A stretch of DNA of 64,000 bases from the NCBI GenBank assembly GCA_903936705.1, contig CAIZWN010000083.1:30346-94345 (forward strand), given 5' to 3'. This document shows, piece after piece, positions 1 through 20,749 of the stretch. Source of the stretch: an uncultured Myxococcales bacterium (GTDB lineage Bacteria; Myxococcota_A; UBA9042; DTJE01). The position numbers were made by a program, and so were the translations under genes. A model generated the notes under the pieces. The model was given only the letters and a program-made list of their open reading frames with translations. It was not told the DNA's origin and searched no databases. Positions within the stretch are counted from its first letter, which is position 1. The number at the start of each line of letters is the position of its first letter.

Positions 1-71
1 CGTGCAGACATCATCCGCACGACGACAAGGAGAACGAGGACGCGCCCGAGGCCGAGGCCCCGGCGGCTTGA
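1..71 (+). CDS. 3' end of an upstream gene (frame 3, C-terminal residues ...HHPHDDKENEDAPEAEAPAA, stop TGA at 69-71). Partial, product unknown. It does not end in Gly-Gly.
   Basis: Frame 3 is open from the window edge to a TGA at 69-71, immediately before the RBS of the JAB gene. Confidence 0.3.
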   Translation, partial: CRHHPHDDKENEDAPEAEAPAA

Positions 72-82
72 AGGAGGCCAGG

Positions 83-850
83 ATGAAGTACACCAGCGCG
101 ATCACCCAGGTCTGGCTCGACCTGGCGGCCCACGAGAAACTGTGGGCGTGGACCCGGATGGCCAAGGGCGAGGTCTCGATGCTGGGCCTCGTCGAGGACG
201 GCGACGGCGGCCCGGTCATCACCGACGTCTTCCTGATGCGGCAGACCTGCACGGCGGCCTCGACCGACATGGATCAGGCGGACATCGCCCGGCTGCTGTT
301 CGACCTGGGGGCCGCCGGCATCGAGGGCCAGCTGCGTGCGTGGGTCCACAGCCACGCCGAGATGGCCGTGTTCTGGAGCGGCACGGACGACAAGTGCATC
401 GAAGGCCTGGGCGGCGATCCGTACATCGTGTCCCTGGTCGTCAACCGGAAGGGTGACGTCAAGGCCCGCATCGACGTGTTCCAGCCGATCCGGTTCGTGA
501 TCGACGACGTGCCGGTGAAGCTCCGGGTCCCCGACCTGGGCTTGGAGGAGCCCTGCAAGGCGGAGTTCATGGCCAAGGTCACCGAGGTCCATGCCTTCTC
601 GACCCTGGGGATCGGCCTGCCGGGCAGCATGTTGTCAGGGCTCCCCAGCAACGAACAGCCCGACCTGTTCGGCAGCCGCCTGCACCGGCGGTCGTTCGCG
701 ATGATGGACCTGGACGAGATGGAGGCCGCCGTCTACCGCGGCGAGATGTCGGTGGACGAGTACATGCGGGCGACGGGGGACGACTCCTTCATCGACCCAT
801 TCGTGGACAACGGCGAACCTGGGGAGGTGGCCAATGGCCGGCATGCGTGA
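83..850 (+). CDS. JAMM/JAB (MPN+) family zinc metalloprotease, 255 aa
   Basis: The ATG at 83 is preceded by AAGGAGG at 71-77. The translated sequence carries the canonical JAMM motif H-S-H-x7-S-x2-D (HSHAEMAVFWSGTDD), with an upstream Glu present. Third codon positions are G/C-saturated, as in the rest of the island. Confidence 0.75.
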   Translation: MKYTSAITQVWLDLAAHEKLWAWTRMAKGEVSMLGLVEDGDGGPVITDVFLMRQTCTAASTDMDQADIARLLFDLGAAGIEGQLRAWVHSHAEMAVFWSGTDDKCIEGLGGDPYIVSLVVNRKGDVKARIDVFQPIRFVIDDVPVKLRVPDLGLEEPCKAEFMAKVTEVHAFSTLGIGLPGSMLSGLPSNEQPDLFGSRLHRRSFAMMDLDEMEAAVYRGEMSVDEYMRATGDDSFIDPFVDNGEPGEVANGRHA

Positions 851-1547
851 AGCCGTGCTGAAATTCCCGGAACCCGACGGCGTTCGGGAAGTCGTCGTGC
901 TGCCCGAGGCCGGGTTCGTCCGGCAGCGGGACATCCTGCCCTGGGAGAAGTTGCAGGCGGCCAGGATCACGGTCATCGGCGCCGGGGCCGTGGGGTCCTT
1001 CACGGCGCTGTCCCTGGTGAAGATGGGTGTCGGCACCGTCGAGGTGTACGACTTCGACACCGTTTCCGTCGAGAACCTGGGCCCCCAGTGGTTCCGGGTG
1101 TGCGACCTGGGGCGCCCGAAGGTCGAGGCGCTGGCCGACCAACTGGCGGCGTTCGGCGGCAACGTCGTCGCCCACAATGAGCGGTTCCTGGCCCAGCCGG
1201 TGTCGGGCATCGTGGTCTGCACGGTGGACTCCATGGACGCCCGGATCGCGATCTGGAGGCACATCCGCAAGTGCAGGCGGGTGGACCTGTATCTGGACGC
1301 CCGGATGGGCGCCGAGGTCGGCAAGGTGTTCGCCATCCGCCCCCAGGACCCGGAAGACTGCCGGGCCTACGAGGCGGAACTGTACCCGTCCACCGAAGCG
1401 TTCCGTGCCCCCTGCACGGCTCGCAGCACGATCTACTGCGCGTCCGGGCTGTCGGCATTCCTGGCCGCCACGGTCGGCAACCACCTGGCCGGGCGCCGGT
1501 ACCGCCGGGAGCTGGTCGTGGACTTCCGGCAGGGGCTCATCGTCTGA
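834..1547 (+). CDS. Minimal E1-like (ThiF/MoeB-fold) adenylyltransferase-like protein, about 235 aa. Alternative start at ATG 843.
   Basis: Rossmann motif VIGAGAVGS, a ThiF-like stretch VYDFDTVSVENLGPQ, and the start overlaps the JAB stop (ATGCGTGA), indicating translational coupling. No fused E2 domain and no CxxC zinc motif are visible. Confidence 0.7.
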   Translation: MAGMREAVLKFPEPDGVREVVVLPEAGFVRQRDILPWEKLQAARITVIGAGAVGSFTALSLVKMGVGTVEVYDFDTVSVENLGPQWFRVCDLGRPKVEALADQLAAFGGNVVAHNERFLAQPVSGIVVCTVDSMDARIAIWRHIRKCRRVDLYLDARMGAEVGKVFAIRPQDPEDCRAYEAELYPSTEAFRAPCTARSTIYCASGLSAFLAATVGNHLAGRRYRRELVVDFRQGLIV

Positions 1548-4460: not shown

Positions 4461-4487
4461 ATCCCCAACACCAACATGGAGGTCGTC

Positions 4488-5144
4488 GTGAACGAAGTGA
4501 AGGAGCGTCTGCTCGCCTTCGGGGCGGGGTGCATGTCGGACACCGAACTACTGGCCCTGGTCATCGGCGGCTCGTCCGGTGCACCTGCGGAGTCGACGGC
4601 GCGCACCCTGCTCGAGCAGATCGGCACTCCCCGCGGCCTGGCATCCCGCCGCGCGACGGAGCTGGCACGGGTCCCCGGGATGAACCCGACCCGGGCCCAC
4701 CGGCTCCTGGCCGCCATCGAACTGGGCGCCCGCGCGCAGGTCGCGGTGGACGCCGGGCAGCCCCTGATGACGGCGGCGGACGTCGCCGCCCGTTGCCACC
4801 GCCTGAAGTCCGAGACCGTCGAGCAGTTCGTGGCGATCAGCGTGAACGCCCGGAACCGCGTACTCGGCGAGTGGGTCGTAGCCCGGGGCTGGGAGTCCGG
4901 CGTGAACCTGACCCCGCGGCAGGTGTTCACGCTGCTGTCCAAGGAGTCCGTTTCACGCGTGATCCTGGTCCACAACCACCCCTCCGGGGACCCGACCCCG
5001 AGTCCCGAGGACGTGCGGTTCACGCAACGGCTCCTGGAAGCCGCCCGGACGCTGGACATCAAGGTGCTGGACCACGTCATCGTCGCCAGCGGGGGCTTCG
5101 CCAGCATCCGGGAGCAGGCACGGGGCGACGTGGAGTTCGGGTAA
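4488..5144 (+). CDS. radC: RadC-family JAB-domain protein. GTG start at 4488 (ATG 4476 also possible).
   Basis: N-terminal ERLLAFGAGCMSDTELLALVIGGS and JAMM motif HNHPSGDPTPSPED. GGAGG at 4479-4483. Confidence 0.7.
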   Translation: MNEVKERLLAFGAGCMSDTELLALVIGGSSGAPAESTARTLLEQIGTPRGLASRRATELARVPGMNPTRAHRLLAAIELGARAQVAVDAGQPLMTAADVAARCHRLKSETVEQFVAISVNARNRVLGEWVVARGWESGVNLTPRQVFTLLSKESVSRVILVHNHPSGDPTPSPEDVRFTQRLLEAARTLDIKVLDHVIVASGGFASIREQARGDVEFG

Positions 5145-5675: not shown

Positions 5676-6068
5676 GTGGTCGCCCACCGTAGTCGGGTCA
5701 AGGCCATGATCAACTGGTGCGACATCCACGTTGAGGTCCCCGCCGTGCCCTTCCGTGATCTCGCCCGGCCCGGCGGCGGGGAGACGTCGGAGATCGCACG
5801 CATGCGCGTCACCCAGGCCCGGGAGCACCGTCGATCCCGGGACGAAGAACTGTCCCGACGTCGGGACACCACCGCGAAGGCATCGCTGCCGCCCGAGGCC
5901 ACGCGCCTGCTGGAGGCCGCCCAGGAGCGCCTGGGCCTGTCGCCAAAGTCCATCGACGCCGTCCTGCGGGTCGCCCGCACCATCGCCGACCTCGATGGCA
6001 ATGACGACATGCGCGTCGTTCACGTCAGCGAGGCCATCCAGTTCCGGTGGCTGGACCGCCACATCTGA
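5676..6068 (+). pseudogene. comM: 3' remnant of comM/yifB (Mg-chelatase-like ATPase C-terminal domain only)
   Basis: Translation IDIHVEVP...SEIARMRVTQAREHRRSR...AVLRVARTIADLDGNDDMRVVHVSEAIQFRWLDRHI matches the YifB/ComM C-terminus. No AAA+ domain is encoded upstream in any frame. Confidence 0.6.
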
Positions 6069-6188: not shown

Positions 6189-6737
6189 ATGACCAACGTC
6201 ATCCGCCTTCGCACCACCCGGACGCCCGATGCCGGGAAGATGCCCGCGTCGGACGCCCCGAACCCCGTCGCCGCCCTCGTGGCGACCATCGACAAGGCCC
6301 TCGGCGACACCTGGTCCTTCGATCTGGTGCATCACGAGGTCGTCGGCGACGAGACCATCGTGTTCGCGAACCTCGTGGTCGACGGCAAGCACCGGATCGG
6401 CATCGGCGGCACCAGCGAGAAGGGCACGCTGGTCCACCGGCTGAACGCCGCCACCCTGGACGCCCTGACGCGCGCAGCGGGGTGGATGGGGATTGCGACC
6501 GCGGAGGCGATCACGCCCCAGGCGATCCCCGAGCCCGAAGCCCCCGGCCCGGCCGAGGCCGGCACCCGAATCACGCGGAAGCAGCTGGACTACGCGATCA
6601 GCCTGGCTCGTGACCGCGGTATCGCCCGGGACAAGCTGGCAGCGCGGTGCCTGGCCGAGTTCAAGAAGAAGCCCGAGTACCTGACGAGGGCCGAGGCCAG
6701 TGTTCTGATCGAGACCCTCAAGCAGGAGGCCGCGTGA
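6189..6737 (+). CDS. Putative Rad52/Sak-like single-strand annealing protein
   Basis: RBS AAGGAG. The core ...VVDGKHRIGIGGTSEKGTLVHRLNAATLDALTRAAGWMGIA resembles the Rad52-family G-x-G...A-x-TDALKRA..FGIG signature. It is followed immediately by an exonuclease. Confidence 0.4.
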   Translation: MTNVIRLRTTRTPDAGKMPASDAPNPVAALVATIDKALGDTWSFDLVHHEVVGDETIVFANLVVDGKHRIGIGGTSEKGTLVHRLNAATLDALTRAAGWMGIATAEAITPQAIPEPEAPGPAEAGTRITRKQLDYAISLARDRGIARDKLAARCLAEFKKKPEYLTRAEASVLIETLKQEAA

Positions 6738-7555
6738 TGAATGCCATCATCCGCACCGAGCCCCTGGCCGCACTCCGGCAAGGGCTCCACACGTCCGTGT
6801 CCCAGGTCAAGGCGTTCCAGACCTGCGGGAAGCGCTACGAAATTCAATACGTGCGCGGAGTCCCGCCTTCGCACCGACCCATCGCCCTGTCGTTCGGTTC
6901 CGCTGTACACGCAGCGTTGGAGACGTTCTACGAGCGCCTCCGGGACACCGGGGAGAAGCCCCCGGTCGAGGAACTGCAGGCCGCCTTCGCCGACCGGATG
7001 GACGTCGAGATGGCCGACGCTAGCATCCCGATCCGGTTCGATGACGGCCAGGACGCCGGGACCGTGAAGGGCCAGGGGATCGCGATGCTGGCCAACTATC
7101 ACCAGAAGGGCTTCGTGCCCGACCGGGTCATCGCCGTCGAACAGCCGTTCGCGGTGGACCTCGCTGACCCCGAGACCGGCCAGGTGCTGGACATCCCCCT
7201 GATCGGGGCCATCGACCTGGTGGCCGAGCACCAGGGGCGGGTGGTTCTGGTGGAACACAAGACCGCCGCAAGGCGCTTCGATGCCATCCGCCTGCGGCAT
7301 GACATCCAACCGAGTTCGTACCTGTTCGCGGCGAAGTCGTTGCAGCTCGCCGGCGCAACCACCGCGTTCAACCTGCTCTTGAAGGGGAAGGGGACGCCGA
7401 CGGAGTACATCCCGCTGAGCCGGACGAGGGCCGACGAGATCGAGGCCCTGGAGACGATCACCGCAGTACTCCGAGCGATTGAGTCCCAAATCTTCTTCAG
7501 GACGAGGGGGTGGGCGTGCGGGGATTGTGGGTTCAAGAGGGCGTGCGGAGGATAG
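6737..7555 (+). CDS. PD-(D/E)xK (RecB/Cas4/YqaJ-like) exonuclease with a C-terminal Cys cluster
   Basis: The start overlaps the upstream stop (GTGATGA). D-x(n)-E-x-K-like residues (DLVAEHQGRVVLVEHK) and a C-terminal GWACGDCGFKRAC cluster. Confidence 0.55.
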   Translation: MNAIIRTEPLAALRQGLHTSVSQVKAFQTCGKRYEIQYVRGVPPSHRPIALSFGSAVHAALETFYERLRDTGEKPPVEELQAAFADRMDVEMADASIPIRFDDGQDAGTVKGQGIAMLANYHQKGFVPDRVIAVEQPFAVDLADPETGQVLDIPLIGAIDLVAEHQGRVVLVEHKTAARRFDAIRLRHDIQPSSYLFAAKSLQLAGATTAFNLLLKGKGTPTEYIPLSRTRADEIEALETITAVLRAIESQIFFRTRGWACGDCGFKRACGG

Positions 7556-8745: not shown

Positions 8746-9190
8746 ATGCCCGGACAGCAGCCCAATGACCTCGAGAACATTGTGGTTCAGACCCATGCAG
8801 ATTGCAATGCGACGGAGATCTCGGATGCGGTGGAACACGTCGACCAGGTGGACCGTGTCGGTCTGGAAATCGGCCCCTCCATGTTTCCCGGACAGGGCGA
8901 CTCAACGGTGCGGGTTGAGGCCCACACGCTGCTCGACGGTTCCACGAAGGGGAAGACCGGCCTTGTTGGCCGGGACGCTTTTCTGAAGGCTGCCAAGTAC
9001 CGCGAGGACGAGACACCCTACCTGACCACGGCGGAGGCCGCTGTCTATCTCCGGTACAAGACCCCCGCGGGGGTGCGGATGCTCAAGTTTCGAAATCTCC
9101 TCAAGCCGGTTGGCAGGCGCGGCACTACGGACATCTACTTGCGGTCAGATCTCGACACCTTCCTCGGTGTCGGCAAGGAGCTTGGACATG
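8746..9190 (+). CDS. xis: Excisionase/AlpA-family HTH protein. The end is uncertain: the reading frame stays open to 9462 and overlaps int in another frame.
   Basis: Motif LTTAEAAVYLRYKTPAGVRMLKFRNLLKPVGRRGTTDIYLRSDLDTFL is an excisionase-type HTH, and the gene lies directly upstream of the integrase. Confidence 0.5.
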
Positions 9191-10507
9191 GGAAAGCCGA
9201 AGATGACTCCCACGGGGCACCGCGGGATCTACCAGGTGCCGGGCGGGTTCCTGCTCCGTCCCCGGGTAACGGATCCGCGTACCGGAAAGGAAGTGGAACG
9301 CGCCCGGACCATCAAGGGCGTCGGGCTGAAGACGGCGAAGGCCGAGTTCGCGCACCTTCGCCAGGAGATGCAGGAGGAGCTCAGGCGGGGCGGCCTGCAG
9401 AAAGAGAGCCGGGAGACCGTTTCGGACTACGCGCTGTCCTGGTACGAGCGCGGCCTGCCTAACTGGGCGCAGTCGACACGGGAGCGCTATCTGGTGGCGC
9501 TGGAGCAGCACATCCTGCCGTCGCTGGGAAGCATTCCGCTTCGTGATGTGCGACGCGGGGACGTTGAGGACTGGCGAGTCGAGATGACCCGGAAGGTGAA
9601 CCCGAAGAATGGTAAGGCCTACGACAACACGACCATCAATGGCTGGCTTCGCGTCCTGATCCACATGCTCAAGGACGCGGTGGCTGGCGGCCTCACCGAA
9701 CAGGACCCGACGTTGCGGATCAAGGCGCTGCCGGAGGTCAGCGGGTCGCTCGACCCCTCCGGCAGCCAGGAAGATGGCGCCTACGACGCGGACCGGAAGA
9801 GCCTGTCCTGGAAGGAGATGGATGTCTTCCTGGCGAAGATGAAGGAACTCTATCCCCAGTTCTACCCGCTGGTTAAGTTCGGCATGGCATCTGGTCTTCG
9901 CTGGGGTGAACTTTCGGCGTTGATGTGGGGCGACAAGCTCAGCCTGGTCGGGGAGGGCGGCCGGGAGGTTCACTTCATCAGTGTCGTCAGATCCCAGTAC
10001 AAGGGGGAGCTCAAGGGCCCGAAGACGCCGAAGAGCGTTCGGACGATCCCGCTGATCCCTCTGGCGATGGCTGCGCTGGAGGAGCAGAAGGAGACCCTGG
10101 TGAGGACCGGCAGACCGGTGGGACCCAAGGACTGGATCTTCCCGTCCACGAGGGGGACCTGTCGGCGTGGGTCGATCCTGACGAAGCCGATTCGGAAGGT
10201 TCTCGAGAAAATGGGTCTCGACCGGCGGTTCACGCCCCACGGGATGAGGCACACGTTCAACGACCTGGTTCGGCGCACGGCCCAGGACGGGGTGCTGGTC
10301 CGGAACATGACCGGTCACACGGACGCGCGGATGACCGACAAATACAGCTTCCCCGACCTGCTCGAGAAGAACGCTGCCGTTCACCGAGCCTTCGAACAGC
10401 CGAAGCCCAATCCAGGGGACAGCCGGCCAGAAAAGGAATCATCGGGGGTCAGGGAGCCGCAGGAGGAAACGGGGGACCAAACGGGGTACCGGCAGAAAGC
10501 GGCGTGA
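9187..10507 (+). CDS. int: Tyrosine-type site-specific integrase
   Basis: N-terminal SAM-like core-binding domain, catalytic-region HGMRHTF, and C-terminal GHTDARMTDKYS containing the nucleophilic Tyr. The gene lies next to the tRNA 3' end. Confidence 0.8.
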
Positions 10508-10557: not shown

Positions 10558-10632
<75 letters not shown>

Positions 10633-10757: not shown

Positions 10758-11939
10758 CTACGATGGCAGCGTTCGTACCCGGATATTCGTGCCTGCCGGC
10801 AGGAAGTCCGTGCCGGCTGGCACCAGGGTCAATCCATCGGCACGCGCAAGTGCCACGAAGTCTGCCGAGCCGTGGTAGTCGATGGTCTGGGCGCTTCCAT
10901 CAGCGTCGATCCTGACCGGAATCCATTCGTCGCGGTCCAGGCTGCGGCGCCGGACGTCACGTGCCAGTGGCGCCATGGTCCAGCGCGGCATGAACGTGTG
11001 GCCAGCCATCGCAAGCAGGAACGGTTTGACCAGGATCTCGAACACCACGTAAGTGGAAACTGGGTTACCCGGCAGACCGAAGACTGCCAGGTCGTCGCGG
11101 ATGCCGAACGTCGTCGGCTTGCCGGGCTTGATCGCGATGCCGTCGAACAGCGTTTTGACCCCCTCGTGCATCAGCATTTCAGGGACCCGATCGAAGTCGC
11201 CCTTCGACACGCCACCCGACAGGATTACCACGTCGCTTGTGGCTGCCGCCTCGCCAAACCGGCGTCGAAGACCCTCAAGATCGTCGCGGGCAATACCGCA
11301 GTACGTCGCCACCCCACCAGCCTGCGTGACCTGGGCCGCAAGTTGCCAGCCGTTCGAGTTGCGAATCTGGGACGGCCCTGGCTTTACCCAGGGTTCTACC
11401 AGTTCGTCGCCTGTTGCAAGGATCGCCACTCTGGGTCGCACGGTCACCAGCGGCCTGGCCACTCCCACCGCAGCCAATACCGCTATGTGCCGCGGATCCA
11501 GTCGCGTTCCTGCATTCAGGACAATCTCCCCGGCCCTTACGTCCTCGGCGCGGCGGCACAGGTTCGACCGTGTCATCGTTCCGGAAAAGCGGACGGTTTT
11601 ATCCGCCATGGTCTCGGACTGTTCGATCATGAAGATCGTGTCGGCGCCTTCGGGGACGCATGCTCCCGTCATGATTCGCGCGCACTGGCCAGGACCTATC
11701 CGGCAGGTCGGCATGGTCCCGGCTGGCAGCGTCTCGACGACCGTAAGCGCCTGGCCCAGGTCCTCGGCGCGGCACGCGAACCCGTCCATCGAAGCCTTGT
11801 CGAAGGGCGGGAAGTCCAGGTCGGAAGGGACATCCCGGGCCAGCACGCGGCCCGCGGCATCGCCCAGCACGCATTCCTCTTCCCCGGTGCGGTAGGTATG
11901 TTCGAAAACGATCCTTTCAGCATCGGCTAGCCGAATCAT
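10758..11939 (-). CDS. moeA: Molybdopterin molybdotransferase MoeA
   Basis: The MoeA N- and C-terminal domains can be recognised (GGVSKGDFD...). It is the last gene of the operon with AOR and moaD. Confidence 0.7.
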   Translation of the reverse strand: MIRLADAERIVFEHTYRTGEEECVLGDAAGRVLARDVPSDLDFPPFDKASMDGFACRAEDLGQALTVVETLPAGTMPTCRIGPGQCARIMTGACVPEGADTIFMIEQSETMADKTVRFSGTMTRSNLCRRAEDVRAGEIVLNAGTRLDPRHIAVLAAVGVARPLVTVRPRVAILATGDELVEPWVKPGPSQIRNSNGWQLAAQVTQAGGVATYCGIARDDLEGLRRRFGEAAATSDVVILSGGVSKGDFDRVPEMLMHEGVKTLFDGIAIKPGKPTTFGIRDDLAVFGLPGNPVSTYVVFEILVKPFLLAMAGHTFMPRWTMAPLARDVRRRSLDRDEWIPVRIDADGSAQTIDYHGSADFVALARADGLTLVPAGTDFLPAGTNIRVRTLPS

Positions 11940-19834: not shown

Positions 19835-20749
19835 ATGCGAGACGTCAGCAGGAAGCCGACGACACTGAGGATGGCGACGGCCACCTCGTCGGTGACAATG
19901 TCGCCCGCCACCGCGGCGATGGTTCAGGCAGGCGAGGGGCCCAAGGGGGACCCTCTGCCAGTGGCACGGGTCGCGGCCGTGATGGCAGCCAAGGACACCA
20001 GCCGTATCGTGCCGTACTGCCATCCGGTTCGCATCGACCACGTGGACGTTCAGTTCGACGTGACGCAGGACCGGGTTGACATCACTTGTCGAGTGACCGC
20101 CGTGGATCGGACCGGCGTCGAGATGGAGGCGCTGTGCGGGGCCATGGTGGCTGCCCTCACGATCTACGACATGCTGAAGCCTGTTGACGAAGGGCTGGTT
20201 ATCGGCCAGACGTGCCTGAAGAAGAAAAAGGGGGGCAAGTCCGACTTTCACGAGGAGTTTGATCGGCCCCTGCGCGGGGCGATCCTCGTGGTGTCAGATT
20301 CGGTCGCGGGCGGGACGCGCAAGGACGGATCGGGCCAGTCCATCGGCCAGCGCATGGTCGAGGCTGGGGTCCTGGTGGGAGATCCAATCGTGCTGCCCGA
20401 CGATCCTGATCTTGTTGAAGCCCAGTTGCGGCGGCTGGTTGCGGACAAAGTGGATCTGGTTTTTACGACGGGTGGCACCGGCCTGGGTCCCAGGGACCTG
20501 ACCGTCGAGGCGGTCCGTCGGGTAATCGATCGCGAGGTGCCCGGTATCACCGAAGCAATGCGCGTCCACGGCTATCTGCGGACCCCGCGTGCCGTGCTGT
20601 CCCGCGGCCTGGCGGGTGTCGCAGGGACGACACTGATCGTGACGCTGCCAGGGTCCACTAAGGGCGTGCAGGAATCGCTTGACGCCCTGTGGCCAGCTCT
20701 GTTGCACATCTTCCCAATGATCTGGGGCGGTGGTCACCAGCCTATTTGA
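19835..20749 (+). CDS. moaC: MoaC-MoaB/MogA fusion (cyclic pyranopterin monophosphate synthase plus molybdopterin adenylyltransferase)
   Basis: N-terminal half is MoaC-like and the C-terminal half MogA/MoaB-like (VDLVFTTGGTGLGPRD). Confidence 0.65.
   Translation: MRDVSRKPTTLRMATATSSVTMSPATAAMVQAGEGPKGDPLPVARVAAVMAAKDTSRIVPYCHPVRIDHVDVQFDVTQDRVDITCRVTAVDRTGVEMEALCGAMVAALTIYDMLKPVDEGLVIGQTCLKKKKGGKSDFHEEFDRPLRGAILVVSDSVAGGTRKDGSGQSIGQRMVEAGVLVGDPIVLPDDPDLVEAQLRRLVADKVDLVFTTGGTGLGPRDLTVEAVRRVIDREVPGITEAMRVHGYLRTPRAVLSRGLAGVAGTTLIVTLPGSTKGVQESLDALWPALLHIFPMIWGGGHQPI

Follow-up and report, generated by a model that had tools for sequence, protein, structure and literature searches.

The first 1,547 nucleotides of a 64,000-nt stretch of DNA from an uncultured Myxococcales bacterium (contig CAIZWN010000083.1, positions 30,346 to 94,345; the whole stretch is called the window in the following) carry the right-hand part of a gene cassette whose products resemble the components of a ubiquitin-like protein (Ubl) conjugation system. 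As read from the sequence and its open reading frames (ORFs), the 3' end of a gene for an E2-like (conjugating-enzyme-like) protein, a JAB protease gene and a gene for an E1-like (activating-enzyme-like) protein follow each other on the + strand. The ORF of the E2-like protein enters from the left window edge and contributes its last 22 codons and the stop codon TGA (3-71, stop at 69-71); the translation, CRHHPHDDKENEDAPEAEAPAA followed by the stop, is identical to the C-terminus of a 480-aa protein (P0001, encoded at L002:311-1753). A Shine-Dalgarno-like GGAGG (73-77) ends 5 nt ahead of the ATG at 83, which opens the gene for a JAMM/MPN+ zinc metalloprotease of 255 aa (83-850, TGA at 848-850). 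This gene overlaps with that of a minimal, single-domain E1-like adenylyltransferase of 237 aa (834-1547; 234 aa with the alternative start at 843). An initial annotation, made from the window alone, had recognised this arrangement in outline, including an overlap of 8-17 nt between JAB and E1 and a third gene with an acidic C-terminus just upstream: the overlap is 17 nt or 8 nt, depending on the E1 start chosen, and the acidic tail belongs to the 480-aa protein. The sequence-level statements of that annotation were thereby confirmed; with the ATG at 83, the gap between the upstream stop codon and the JAB gene is 11 nt.

The supposition that the operon is cut by the window edge was borne out by exact-sequence look-up of the JAB and 480-aa proteins, which retrieved contigs with identical genes. 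On these contigs, the gene order is a 68-aa ThiS-family gene, the 480-aa gene, JAB and ThiF, followed by the downstream genes of the window. Ubl, E2, JAB and E1 genes were found together in all of the 12 related loci, as far as the fetched DNA extends, and this association persists down to 26-45% identity in an unclassified bacterium (L009), a metagenome-assembled genome (MAG) of the Phycisphaerae (L010) and a metagenome contig (L021). In the eight loci with called genes, the overlap between JAB and E1 is always retained (8-23 nt), and the E2 and JAB genes abut or overlap in seven; in the remaining one, L018, they are separated by a gene on the opposite strand. The 12 related loci have no conserved fifth gene, and in particular no separate effector. 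Of the partners that had been expected just upstream, the Ubl and the E2 are thus present, the latter as an E2-like protein, and a conserved effector is not. The close relatives are MAGs of Myxococcales and Anaeromyxobacteraceae. The MAG LaPlata_bin-3248 contains two whole cassettes (L007 and L008), with ~38% identity to the E2-like protein of the window. The Ubl tails of these two cassettes differ (GGRS and GGCR), and one of the copies adjoins a Schlafen AlbA_2 / HATPase_c_4 protein.

The 68-aa product of the upstream gene (MKIKVLKLGSSAHEVEANPGSTVQEVLDKAGVPYGGHAISVNGLGAGLSTALGDGDIVTLVPKVEGGR) is recorded under Pfam ThiS (PF02597) and ends in ...VEGGR, and so an upstream ORF with a near-terminal Gly-Gly, the feature for which the initial annotation had proposed to look, does exist. 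Among 10 loci, the C-termini read GGR, GGV, GGL, GGM, GGC, GGRS or GGCR, with an invariant GG and a variable tail of one or two residues. In weak alignments with CysO, ThiS, SAMP2 and MoaD, the solved chains finish on the aligned GG and the Ubl is one residue longer. Such a GG with a variable extension is the signature expected of a Ubl precursor that would have to be trimmed. Judged by its sequence, the 68-aa protein is thus most likely a GG-bearing beta-grasp modifier of the ThiS/MoaD/SAMP type. Between the Ubl and E2 genes lies a spacer of ~160-200 nt in five of the six loci aligned (L015 1184-1372), and in L019 the spacer is longer and includes a called 105-aa gene. Close relatives share spacer sequence, including a CACGCG-N4-CGCGTG palindrome, and the conservation is confined to them. 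A consensus scan detected no terminator or promoter in the ~185-nt spacer; a possible function is that of an operator, or of an RNA element governing the ratio of Ubl to enzyme.

In the JAB protein, the stretch HSHAEMAVFWSGTD (347-388) conforms to HxHx7Sx2D, as had been read in the initial annotation. The catalytic residues E30 (codon 170-172), H89 (347-349), H91 (353-355), S99 (377-379) and D102 (386-388) are invariant across 37 homologues. When compared with PDB sequences, the family profile matched Rpn11/PSMD14 (E=1.4e-9) and the Caldiarchaeum Rpn11 homologue 6fjv (E=4.4e-9). The AlphaFold2 (AF2) model comprises a folded domain of residues 1-170 (pLDDT ~90) and ~85 C-terminal residues of mostly low confidence; Foldseek matches to this model were Rpn11, CSN5, PfJAMM1, the Caldiarchaeum Rpn11 homologue (6fnn) and BilC (8tyx_B), with E-values from 3.7e-10 to 1e-7. 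Because the metal-binding and catalytic residues are invariant and both the Rpn11 profile match and the predicted MPN fold agree with them, the protein is a true member of the JAMM/MPN+ superfamily. Among the catalogues scanned (Pfam, NCBIfam, PADLOC 2.0 and PHROGs), none contains a model that matched it at threshold; the score with Pfam Prok-JAB (PF14464) was 13.7 bits at a cut-off of 25 (E=0.06).

The E1 matched Pfam ThiF (PF00899) with 71.8 bits (6e-20; cut-off 28.1), in agreement with the ThiF fold assigned to it earlier. Its nucleotide-binding loop GAGAVGS covers residues 49-55, and an alignment of eight orthologues showed G49, G51 and G54 to be invariant along with R30/Q31, D73, D75, N81, K96 and D132. 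The sole invariant Cys of this alignment is C194 in an APCTAR motif (codon 1413-1415), 62 residues past D132, which we take to correspond to the crossover-loop Cys of ThiF (C184) and MoeB (C187). UBA7, MoeB, UBA5, UBA3 and SAE2 were retrieved as sequence matches from the PDB. The score above the ThiF threshold, the GxGxxG loop and the putative catalytic Asp place the protein in the E1/ThiF-MoeB adenylyltransferase superfamily, as far as the primary structure tells. It was noted before as unusually small and free of a fused E2; the E1s compared have a length of 213-237 aa and one adenylation domain. No fused E2, second adenylation domain, CYS domain, UFD, rhodanese domain or CxxC zinc site was detected in the E1.

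The 480-aa protein P0001 is composed of an N-terminal beta domain (residues 1-112), a coiled-coil hairpin (128-235), a predicted UBC-like core (~236-345), four tandem Cys4 repeats (363-459) and the acidic tail. Its AF2 model (pLDDT 76) contains the beta domain at 1-112, a long helical hairpin at 128-235, a beta-meander at 239-284, a loop, helices at 308-338 and the Cys-rich region. Across 153 diverse sequences of the domain that are otherwise ~30% identical, conservation of the motif H296-P297-H298-x7-C306-x-G308 amounts to 99-100%, and 16 further Cys residues, arranged in four repeats of C-x8-10-C-x2-C-x2-4-C, are invariant within the close family. Pfam and NCBIfam returned no match for the protein even at E<=10, PADLOC and PHROGs returned none either, and a whole-protein profile of the family, compared with PDB sequences, picked up nothing beyond faint zinc-finger noise caused by the Cys-rich tail. 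A word-indexed search yielded 31 relatives, and an exhaustive profile search of metagenomes yielded 3,370 cluster representatives (50% identity) at E<=1e-3, of which 867 were found at <=1e-10. The core common to the family extends approximately from residue 130 to 352. With a profile restricted to this core (A4, 51 sequences), at least 24 of 30 matches among 177,635 PDB sequences were ubiquitin-conjugating enzymes, the best of which were UBE2A (0.074) and UBE2L3 (0.11), with UBE2W, UBE2D2 and UBE2N also present, each of them weak singly (E 0.07-2). HPH aligned to the HPN motif and C306 to the catalytic Cys of UBE2A, UBE2L3 and UbcH5B, and hhalign of the core with human UbcH5B gave a probability of 75.8% (E=2.3e-5). 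Because E2 enzymes, aligned by their active sites, dominate the profile matches and hhalign points to UbcH5B, we regard the core as probably UBC/E2-like with a classical active site, at a moderate level of statistical support. Several E2-like orthologues (P0013-P0023) end in ...AAAGGA, ...GGAG or ...GGV, and the window protein ends in ...EAPAA. Gly-Gly near the C-terminus of the E2-like proteins may be a coincidence or a hint of self-processing or self-conjugation.

We consider it probable that the four genes form a complete Ubl-E2-JAB-E1 protein-conjugation cassette that acts in the conflict with phages or mobile elements, the likeliest role being that of a defence system on a tRNA-integrating island. 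The 68-aa ThiS-like Ubl would be produced as a precursor with GG and one or two variable residues, and the JAMM protease (83-850) would trim it to the Gly-Gly and probably also reverse conjugation. The 237-aa E1, most likely a homodimer like MoeB and ThiF, would adenylate the C-terminus of the Ubl, with a probable thioester on C194, and the Ubl would then be transferred to C306 in the UBC-like core of the 480-aa protein, which would join it to lysines of target proteins. The extra modules of the E2, namely the beta domain, the coiled-coil hairpin and the four Cys4 metal-binding repeats, could stand in for an E3 or a substrate adaptor. As no separate effector is conserved, conjugation itself would represent the output, as in the Bil system. 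The characterised bacterial Ubl-E1-E2-JAB operons, type II CBASS (an anti-phage signaling system based on cyclic oligonucleotides) and Bil, all act in anti-phage immunity (PMC11601596).

Bil (BilABCD, types I and II; classes 6D and 6C/CEHH of Iyer, 2006) resembles the cassette in having four separate genes in the order Ubl, E2, JAB and E1, a Ubl with residues past the conserved C-terminal Gly, neither an E3 nor a separate effector, and a location on islands with other defence genes; in addition, BilC (8tyx_B) is among the matches of the JAB model. In contrast, BilD is a large E1 with IAD-AAD-CYS architecture, whereas the E1 of the cassette has 237 aa, a single domain and no CxxC. BilB is an E2 of the CEHH type with a conserved His past the Cys, whereas the E2-like protein has HP(N/H)-x7-C within a 480-aa multidomain protein, and the 68-aa Ubl is ThiS-like and not ISG15- or ubiquitin-like. 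When the E2-core profile was aligned with BilB of E. aridi, hhalign gave a probability of 0.1%, compared with the 75.8% for UbcH5B. Membership in Bil was rejected on account of the E1 architecture and this alignment. Type II CBASS (Cap2/Cap3) and the 6A-MBL system likewise have a JAB partner and a similar E1 adenylation domain (PADLOC E1-E2 models up to 2e-15; NF058523 2.5e-11). However, Cap2 is an E2-E1 fusion that conjugates a CD-NTase, whereas the cassette has a separate E2, a separate E1 and a dedicated Ubl. No CD-NTase, effector or MBL gene was present near the cassette in the loci with gene tables, and the PADLOC E1-E2 models match the adenylation part only, on which grounds this assignment was dismissed. 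Bub (6E/DUF6527) is characterised by a DUF6527 serine protease, Ubl-E2 or E2-E1 fusions, and E1 and E2 proteins devoid of a catalytic Cys (PMC11601596). It was discarded because DUF6527/PF20137 is found in none of the gene tables, the genes of the cassette are separate, and C306 and C194 are conserved. None of the classes 6a-6e has the combination of the cassette, and the E2 of class 6d lacks the classical His (Iyer et al., 2006).

The ubiquitin operons of Caldiarchaeum subterraneum and some bacteria, which consist of Ub, E1, E2, a small RING E3 and an Rpn11-like JAB, share with the cassette a classical HPN-Cys E2, and the Rpn11 homologue of Caldiarchaeum is among the best PDB matches of the JAB profile. 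The Caldiarchaeum Ubl precursor reportedly ends in GG and one further residue and is processed by the Rpn11-like JAMM protease. Unlike these operons, the cassette has a Ubl that resembles ThiS, SAMP and CysO, with no ubiquitin-family chain at E<=10 in the search that yielded these matches, and has no separate RING gene, with the 16-Cys module of four repeats being fused to the E2 instead. Its E1 is also much smaller. A further candidate was PRTRC (ParB-related, ThiF-related cassette), an uncharacterised cassette of plasmids and integrative and conjugative elements (ICEs) that has a minimal ThiF of ~245 aa and, on an Alteromonas plasmid, a succession of 72-aa, 421-aa and 252-aa proteins ahead of the ThiF that repeats the size pattern. 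In contrast to PRTRC, the cassette lacks ParB, and the PRTRC proteins that were inspected show no JAMM motif. The match of the window E1 to PRTRC_ThiF was sub-threshold (4.7e-13, 49 bits, cut-off 144.75), the E2-like, JAB and Ubl proteins matched no PRTRC family, and the JAB and E2-like profiles scored <=0 bits with all proteins of the PRTRC locus on the Alteromonas plasmid. PRTRC membership was rejected because the E1 falls below the cut-off and the profiles fail on this real PRTRC locus. PRTRC_B of this plasmid (pASTE61-200, L025 5208-5966) contains ...PPMLNIDRKGSLCTG..., which resembles the E2 active-site stretch P-x-x-N-I-x3-G-x-L-C, and a 72-aa protein two genes ahead of PRTRC_B has the C-terminus ...KSKG; conceivably, PRTRC is a cryptic Ubl/E2/E1 system in its own right. 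A literature search, beyond which Burroughs et al. (2011) on prokaryotic RING/Ub systems lay, returned no description of the cassette. By these membership comparisons, the cassette appears as a separate, uncatalogued family distinct from Bil, Bub, type II CBASS and PRTRC. Membership in the systems named in the initial annotation (Cap2/Cap3, Bil, Bub and ICE-borne E1/E2/JAB operons) therefore has to be given up, and its broader assignment to bacterial Ubl-conjugation modules stands.

Downstream of the E1, the window continues on the + strand with the genes of the island, as identified by family scans. After 170 nt follows a sigma-70 family factor of 219 aa (1717-2376), which has weak similarity to MzaA, the sigma factor of the MZA system (NCBIfam 1.9e-07, PADLOC 2.6e-07). 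Two of the 12 related loci, L018 and L020, have a homologous sigma gene after the cassette, and on a third contig, from JGI, a Sigma70_r2 gene is found in its vicinity. The sigma-70 gene is an accessory neighbour outside the cassette core, and possibly a regulator of the island or of the cassette. The next genes encode an HTH_17 / excisionase-family DNA-binding protein (2425-2751), a metallophosphoesterase and a RadC-like JAB protein (4476-5144) that belongs to the island backbone, as does a pair consisting of a 182-aa protein and a 272-aa PD-(D/E)XK (Cas4/RecB-like) nuclease (6189-7555). The nuclease itself (6737-7555) matched PADLOC Cas4 with 1.8e-9 and the exonuclease family phrog_1218 with 1.8e-26. 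It is always preceded by the 182-aa protein, and in crAss-like phages a PD-(D/E)XK exonuclease is likewise found a few genes past the JAB-E1 block. Of a YifB/ComM-type protein, an ORF of 120-130 aa (5676-6068, + strand) carries no more than the C-terminal Mg_chelatase_C domain, and a full-length ChlI/Mg_chelatase gene starts at 20686 near the cassette of L011; the ORF in the window may have been left behind by an earlier insertion or rearrangement at a site resembling comM. A tyrosine integrase (Phage_integrase, 9188-10507, + strand) marks the end of the island. It is followed by a tRNA-Gly(GCC) gene on the - strand (10558-10632), the 3' end of which faces the integrase and which is therefore presumed to be the integration site and the right boundary of the island. 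The GC content is 66-69% in the first ~7 kb and 62-64% past the tRNA, where moeA is located (10758-11939) beyond the att site. The island boundary is thereby half established, with the right end in the window and the left end outside of it. Many short contigs (2-5 kb) with the same genes break off inside the cassette or immediately upstream of it, and the genes are also found on contigs of >200 kb, which suggests strain-level variation at the island among the samples.

Among the closest relatives, genes downstream of the cassette recur: the pair of the 182-aa protein and the PD-(D/E)XK nuclease is shared by the window, L004, L006, L018 and L019, RadC is present in L004, L011 and L019 as it is in the window, and L019 also has an integrase, like the window. 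Immediately upstream of the Ubl, the gene content varies between loci and consists of known or candidate defence systems: L019 (1-9177) carries DISARM DrmB (2e-71), DrmC (4e-61) and a Dsr1-like gene, L020 (4251-6221) a GmrSD/HEC-06-type gene and L011 (1-5143) HsdR of a type I restriction-modification system together with PDC-M41B, and upstream of window position 1, the contig of the window itself encodes a SACS+NOV_C protein of 1,645 aa as well as a MoxR ATPase. The slot upstream of the Ubl looks like a hot spot for defence cargo, the contents of which would vary by island. The cassette itself gives the impression, in these closest relatives, of a fixed component of the island beside the variable defence slot and not of variable cargo. 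Of the earlier proposal of cargo on a tRNA-integrated island, the tRNA-Gly, the integrase and the GC shift uphold the island, and the term cargo does not seem to fit.

This neighbourhood supports a role in phage or mobile-element conflict, but it fits a function of the island backbone beside a defence slot equally well. Defence is the role that we favour, tentatively and at slightly less than even odds, and several observations weigh against it. The argument for defence is one of guilt by association from the neighbourhood only. RadC, the PD-(D/E)XK nuclease and, wherever it is in view, the integrase accompany the cassette in the five closest loci, which may therefore amount to a single evolutionary observation, and the contexts of L007 and L013 are devoid of obvious defence or mobile genes. 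With regard to the proposed biochemistry, the E1 lacks a conserved Arg at the canonical position of the NLxRQ motif, the residue being P84 in the window protein and variable in the orthologues. Finally, JAB and E1 relatives in the replication modules of phages point to a function on the side of the mobile element.

These phage relatives deserve closer consideration. The E1 matched phrog_15670 over its full length (2e-21), and E1 homologues were found in 82 phage genomes. In crAss-like phages (Steigviridae; crAss001 gp77/gp76) and FpV4-like Flavobacterium phages, a JAB protein is encoded immediately before the E1, with genes that overlap or abut, and both are homologous to the window proteins, with E-values of 1e-13 to 3e-8 for the phage JABs with the family profile and 1e-29 to 1e-36 for the phage E1s. 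In the phage loci examined (L022-L024 and L026-L029), the pair lies between the primase and the uracil-DNA glycosylase (UDG) or PD-(D/E)XK exonuclease genes. The block of crAss001 (L029 762-5172) comprises gp79 (~225 aa), gp78 (~440 aa), gp77 (a JAB protein of ~400 aa) and gp76 (a mini-E1). The protein that precedes JAB in these blocks (~430 aa) shows the motif order of the E2 core: in an alignment of seven gp78 sequences, the motifs Y-x-H-x-H-V, C-x-G and PY-x-x-E are in register with it. The hhalign scores of gp78 with the core were 20-26, compared with a maximum of 19 in 30 column shuffles, at probabilities of 10-24%, and we regard the relationship as suggestive. A search for gp78 homologues listed only near-identical crAss sequences with >=79% identity. 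The gp79 protein has a beta-grasp-like N-terminal pattern and ends in K-S-G-[AG]; as a candidate Ubl homologue it was rejected, with no detectable similarity to the Ubl (hhalign 0.3%). The E2-like protein itself matched none of 50,697 phage records (INPHARED) or 72,556 plasmid records (PLSDB), and no match was found in IMG/VR by pattern. The gp79-gp76 block of crAss and FpV4-like phages may be a phage-encoded Ubl-conjugation system.

Accordingly, the strongest competitor of a defence cassette assumes the same Ubl-conjugation biochemistry in the service of the mobile element, where host or element proteins would be modified for replication, establishment or counter-defence, as a PRTRC-like backbone function shared with phages. 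We rate this as the less probable of the two, though well worth keeping in view. It agrees with the fixed position of the cassette beside the 182-aa protein and the nuclease while the genes upstream of the Ubl vary, with the companion RadC and integrase genes, with the full-length phage-family match of the E1 and the position of the JAB-E1 pairs in phage genomes, with the gp78 motifs that score above shuffles, and with the size pattern of the PRTRC locus. On the other hand, the phage proteins are only ~25-33% identical to those of the window and have partners of other sizes, the JAB proteins having ~400 aa and the E1s often an N-terminal extension, and for this reason their function may differ. 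The link between gp78 and the E2 is not significant alone, that between gp79 and the Ubl is unsupported, and the E2-like protein went unmatched in the phage, plasmid and IMG/VR searches. Furthermore, the more distant cassettes L007, L013 and L021 occur without the island backbone, and neither the JAB nor the E2-like profile recognises a protein of the PRTRC locus.

A protein-conjugation cassette has also to be distinguished from a sulfur carrier of the CysO-Mec+-MoeZ or QbsCDE type, in which the trimmed and adenylated Ubl would be thiocarboxylated and donate sulfur to a small molecule, with no protein being conjugated. In CysO/Mec+ and QbsE/QbsD, a carrier with GG and extra residues is combined with a JAMM protease and a ThiF enzyme, and this is also the logic of three genes of the cassette: a ThiS-like protein with post-GG residues, a JAMM protease for trimming and an adenylating enzyme of the ThiF family. 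The best matches of the Ubl are ThiS, MoaD, CysO and SAMP-like carriers, and moeA is encoded in the window. We consider this explanation very unlikely, however, because the E1 has no rhodanese or sulfurtransferase domain, the JAB protein is closest to Rpn11-type deubiquitinases, and the strictly co-conserved E2-type protein with its HPH...Cys motif would be left unexplained. In addition, moeA lies past the integrase and the tRNA att site and is unlinked to the cassette elsewhere. CysM, ThiG/H, MoaE and siderophore genes were present in none of the ~12 contexts, and the assignment to a ThiS/MoaD/CysO pathway was rejected since these contexts contain neither a sulfurtransferase (rhodanese or cysteine desulfurase) nor an acceptor enzyme. 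The lack of thiamine, molybdenum cofactor or cysteine biosynthesis partners in the same ~12 contexts, along with the invariant metal ligands of JAB, agrees with the initial assignment to Ubl conjugation.

Least probable of all is that the 480-aa protein serves as a scaffold or a metal-binding regulator in which HPH...C occurs by chance, and that Ubl, E1 and JAB carry out an E2-independent, SAMP-like conjugation, as archaeal SAMPylation requires an E1 only, or regulate the sigma factor: fold searches retrieved no E2 structures, Pfam and NCBIfam are silent on the protein, and a homologous sigma-70 gene follows the E1 in three loci including the window, but the near-complete conservation of the motif in highly diverged sequences, the predominance among the profile matches of E2 enzymes whose active sites line up with it, the hhalign result with UbcH5B and a predicted secondary structure (beta-meander, HPH/Cys loop and helices) that fits the UBC/RWD fold all contradict it, as does the absence of the homologous sigma gene from 10 of the 12 related loci.

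If the four genes indeed form a protein-conjugation cassette, as we consider probable, they extend a group of systems with a twofold significance. Bacterial Ubl/E1/E2/JAB operons are working conjugation systems and anti-phage weapons, as in type II CBASS and Bil, with Bub being biochemically characterised, and they are the best models for the origin of eukaryotic ubiquitination. To these, the cassette would add a large family (~3,370 representatives), located in this genome beside a hot spot for defence genes on a mobile island, whose E2-like and JAB proteins are missed by current catalogues and whose E1 is recognised only as a member of the generic ThiF family. It brings together the E2 motif that is most eukaryote-like (HPx...C) and parts of the most primitive kind, namely an E1 of 237 aa resembling ThiF and a tag resembling ThiS, and would therefore be informative on the transition from sulfur carriers to protein conjugation. 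The candidate substrate-recognition modules built into the E2 could show how specificity was achieved before E3 enzymes. The relatives of JAB and E1 in crAss-like phages lead to testable hypotheses for defence as well as for phage biology. A more far-reaching and rather doubtful possibility is that the cassette represents a widespread, uncatalogued ubiquitination-like lineage, with a classical HPN-type E2 fused to a coiled coil and four Cys4 repeats as its own substrate- or E3-like module, an E1 smaller than any other known and a ThiS-like tag whose tail can be cleaved off, that would occur both on bacterial defence islands and in the replication modules of Flavobacterium phages and crAss-like phages (crAss001 gp79-gp76). 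If this were true, some of the most abundant phages of the human gut would encode their own Ubl-conjugation system, and the bacterial and the phage versions would be opposing parties in a single arms race.

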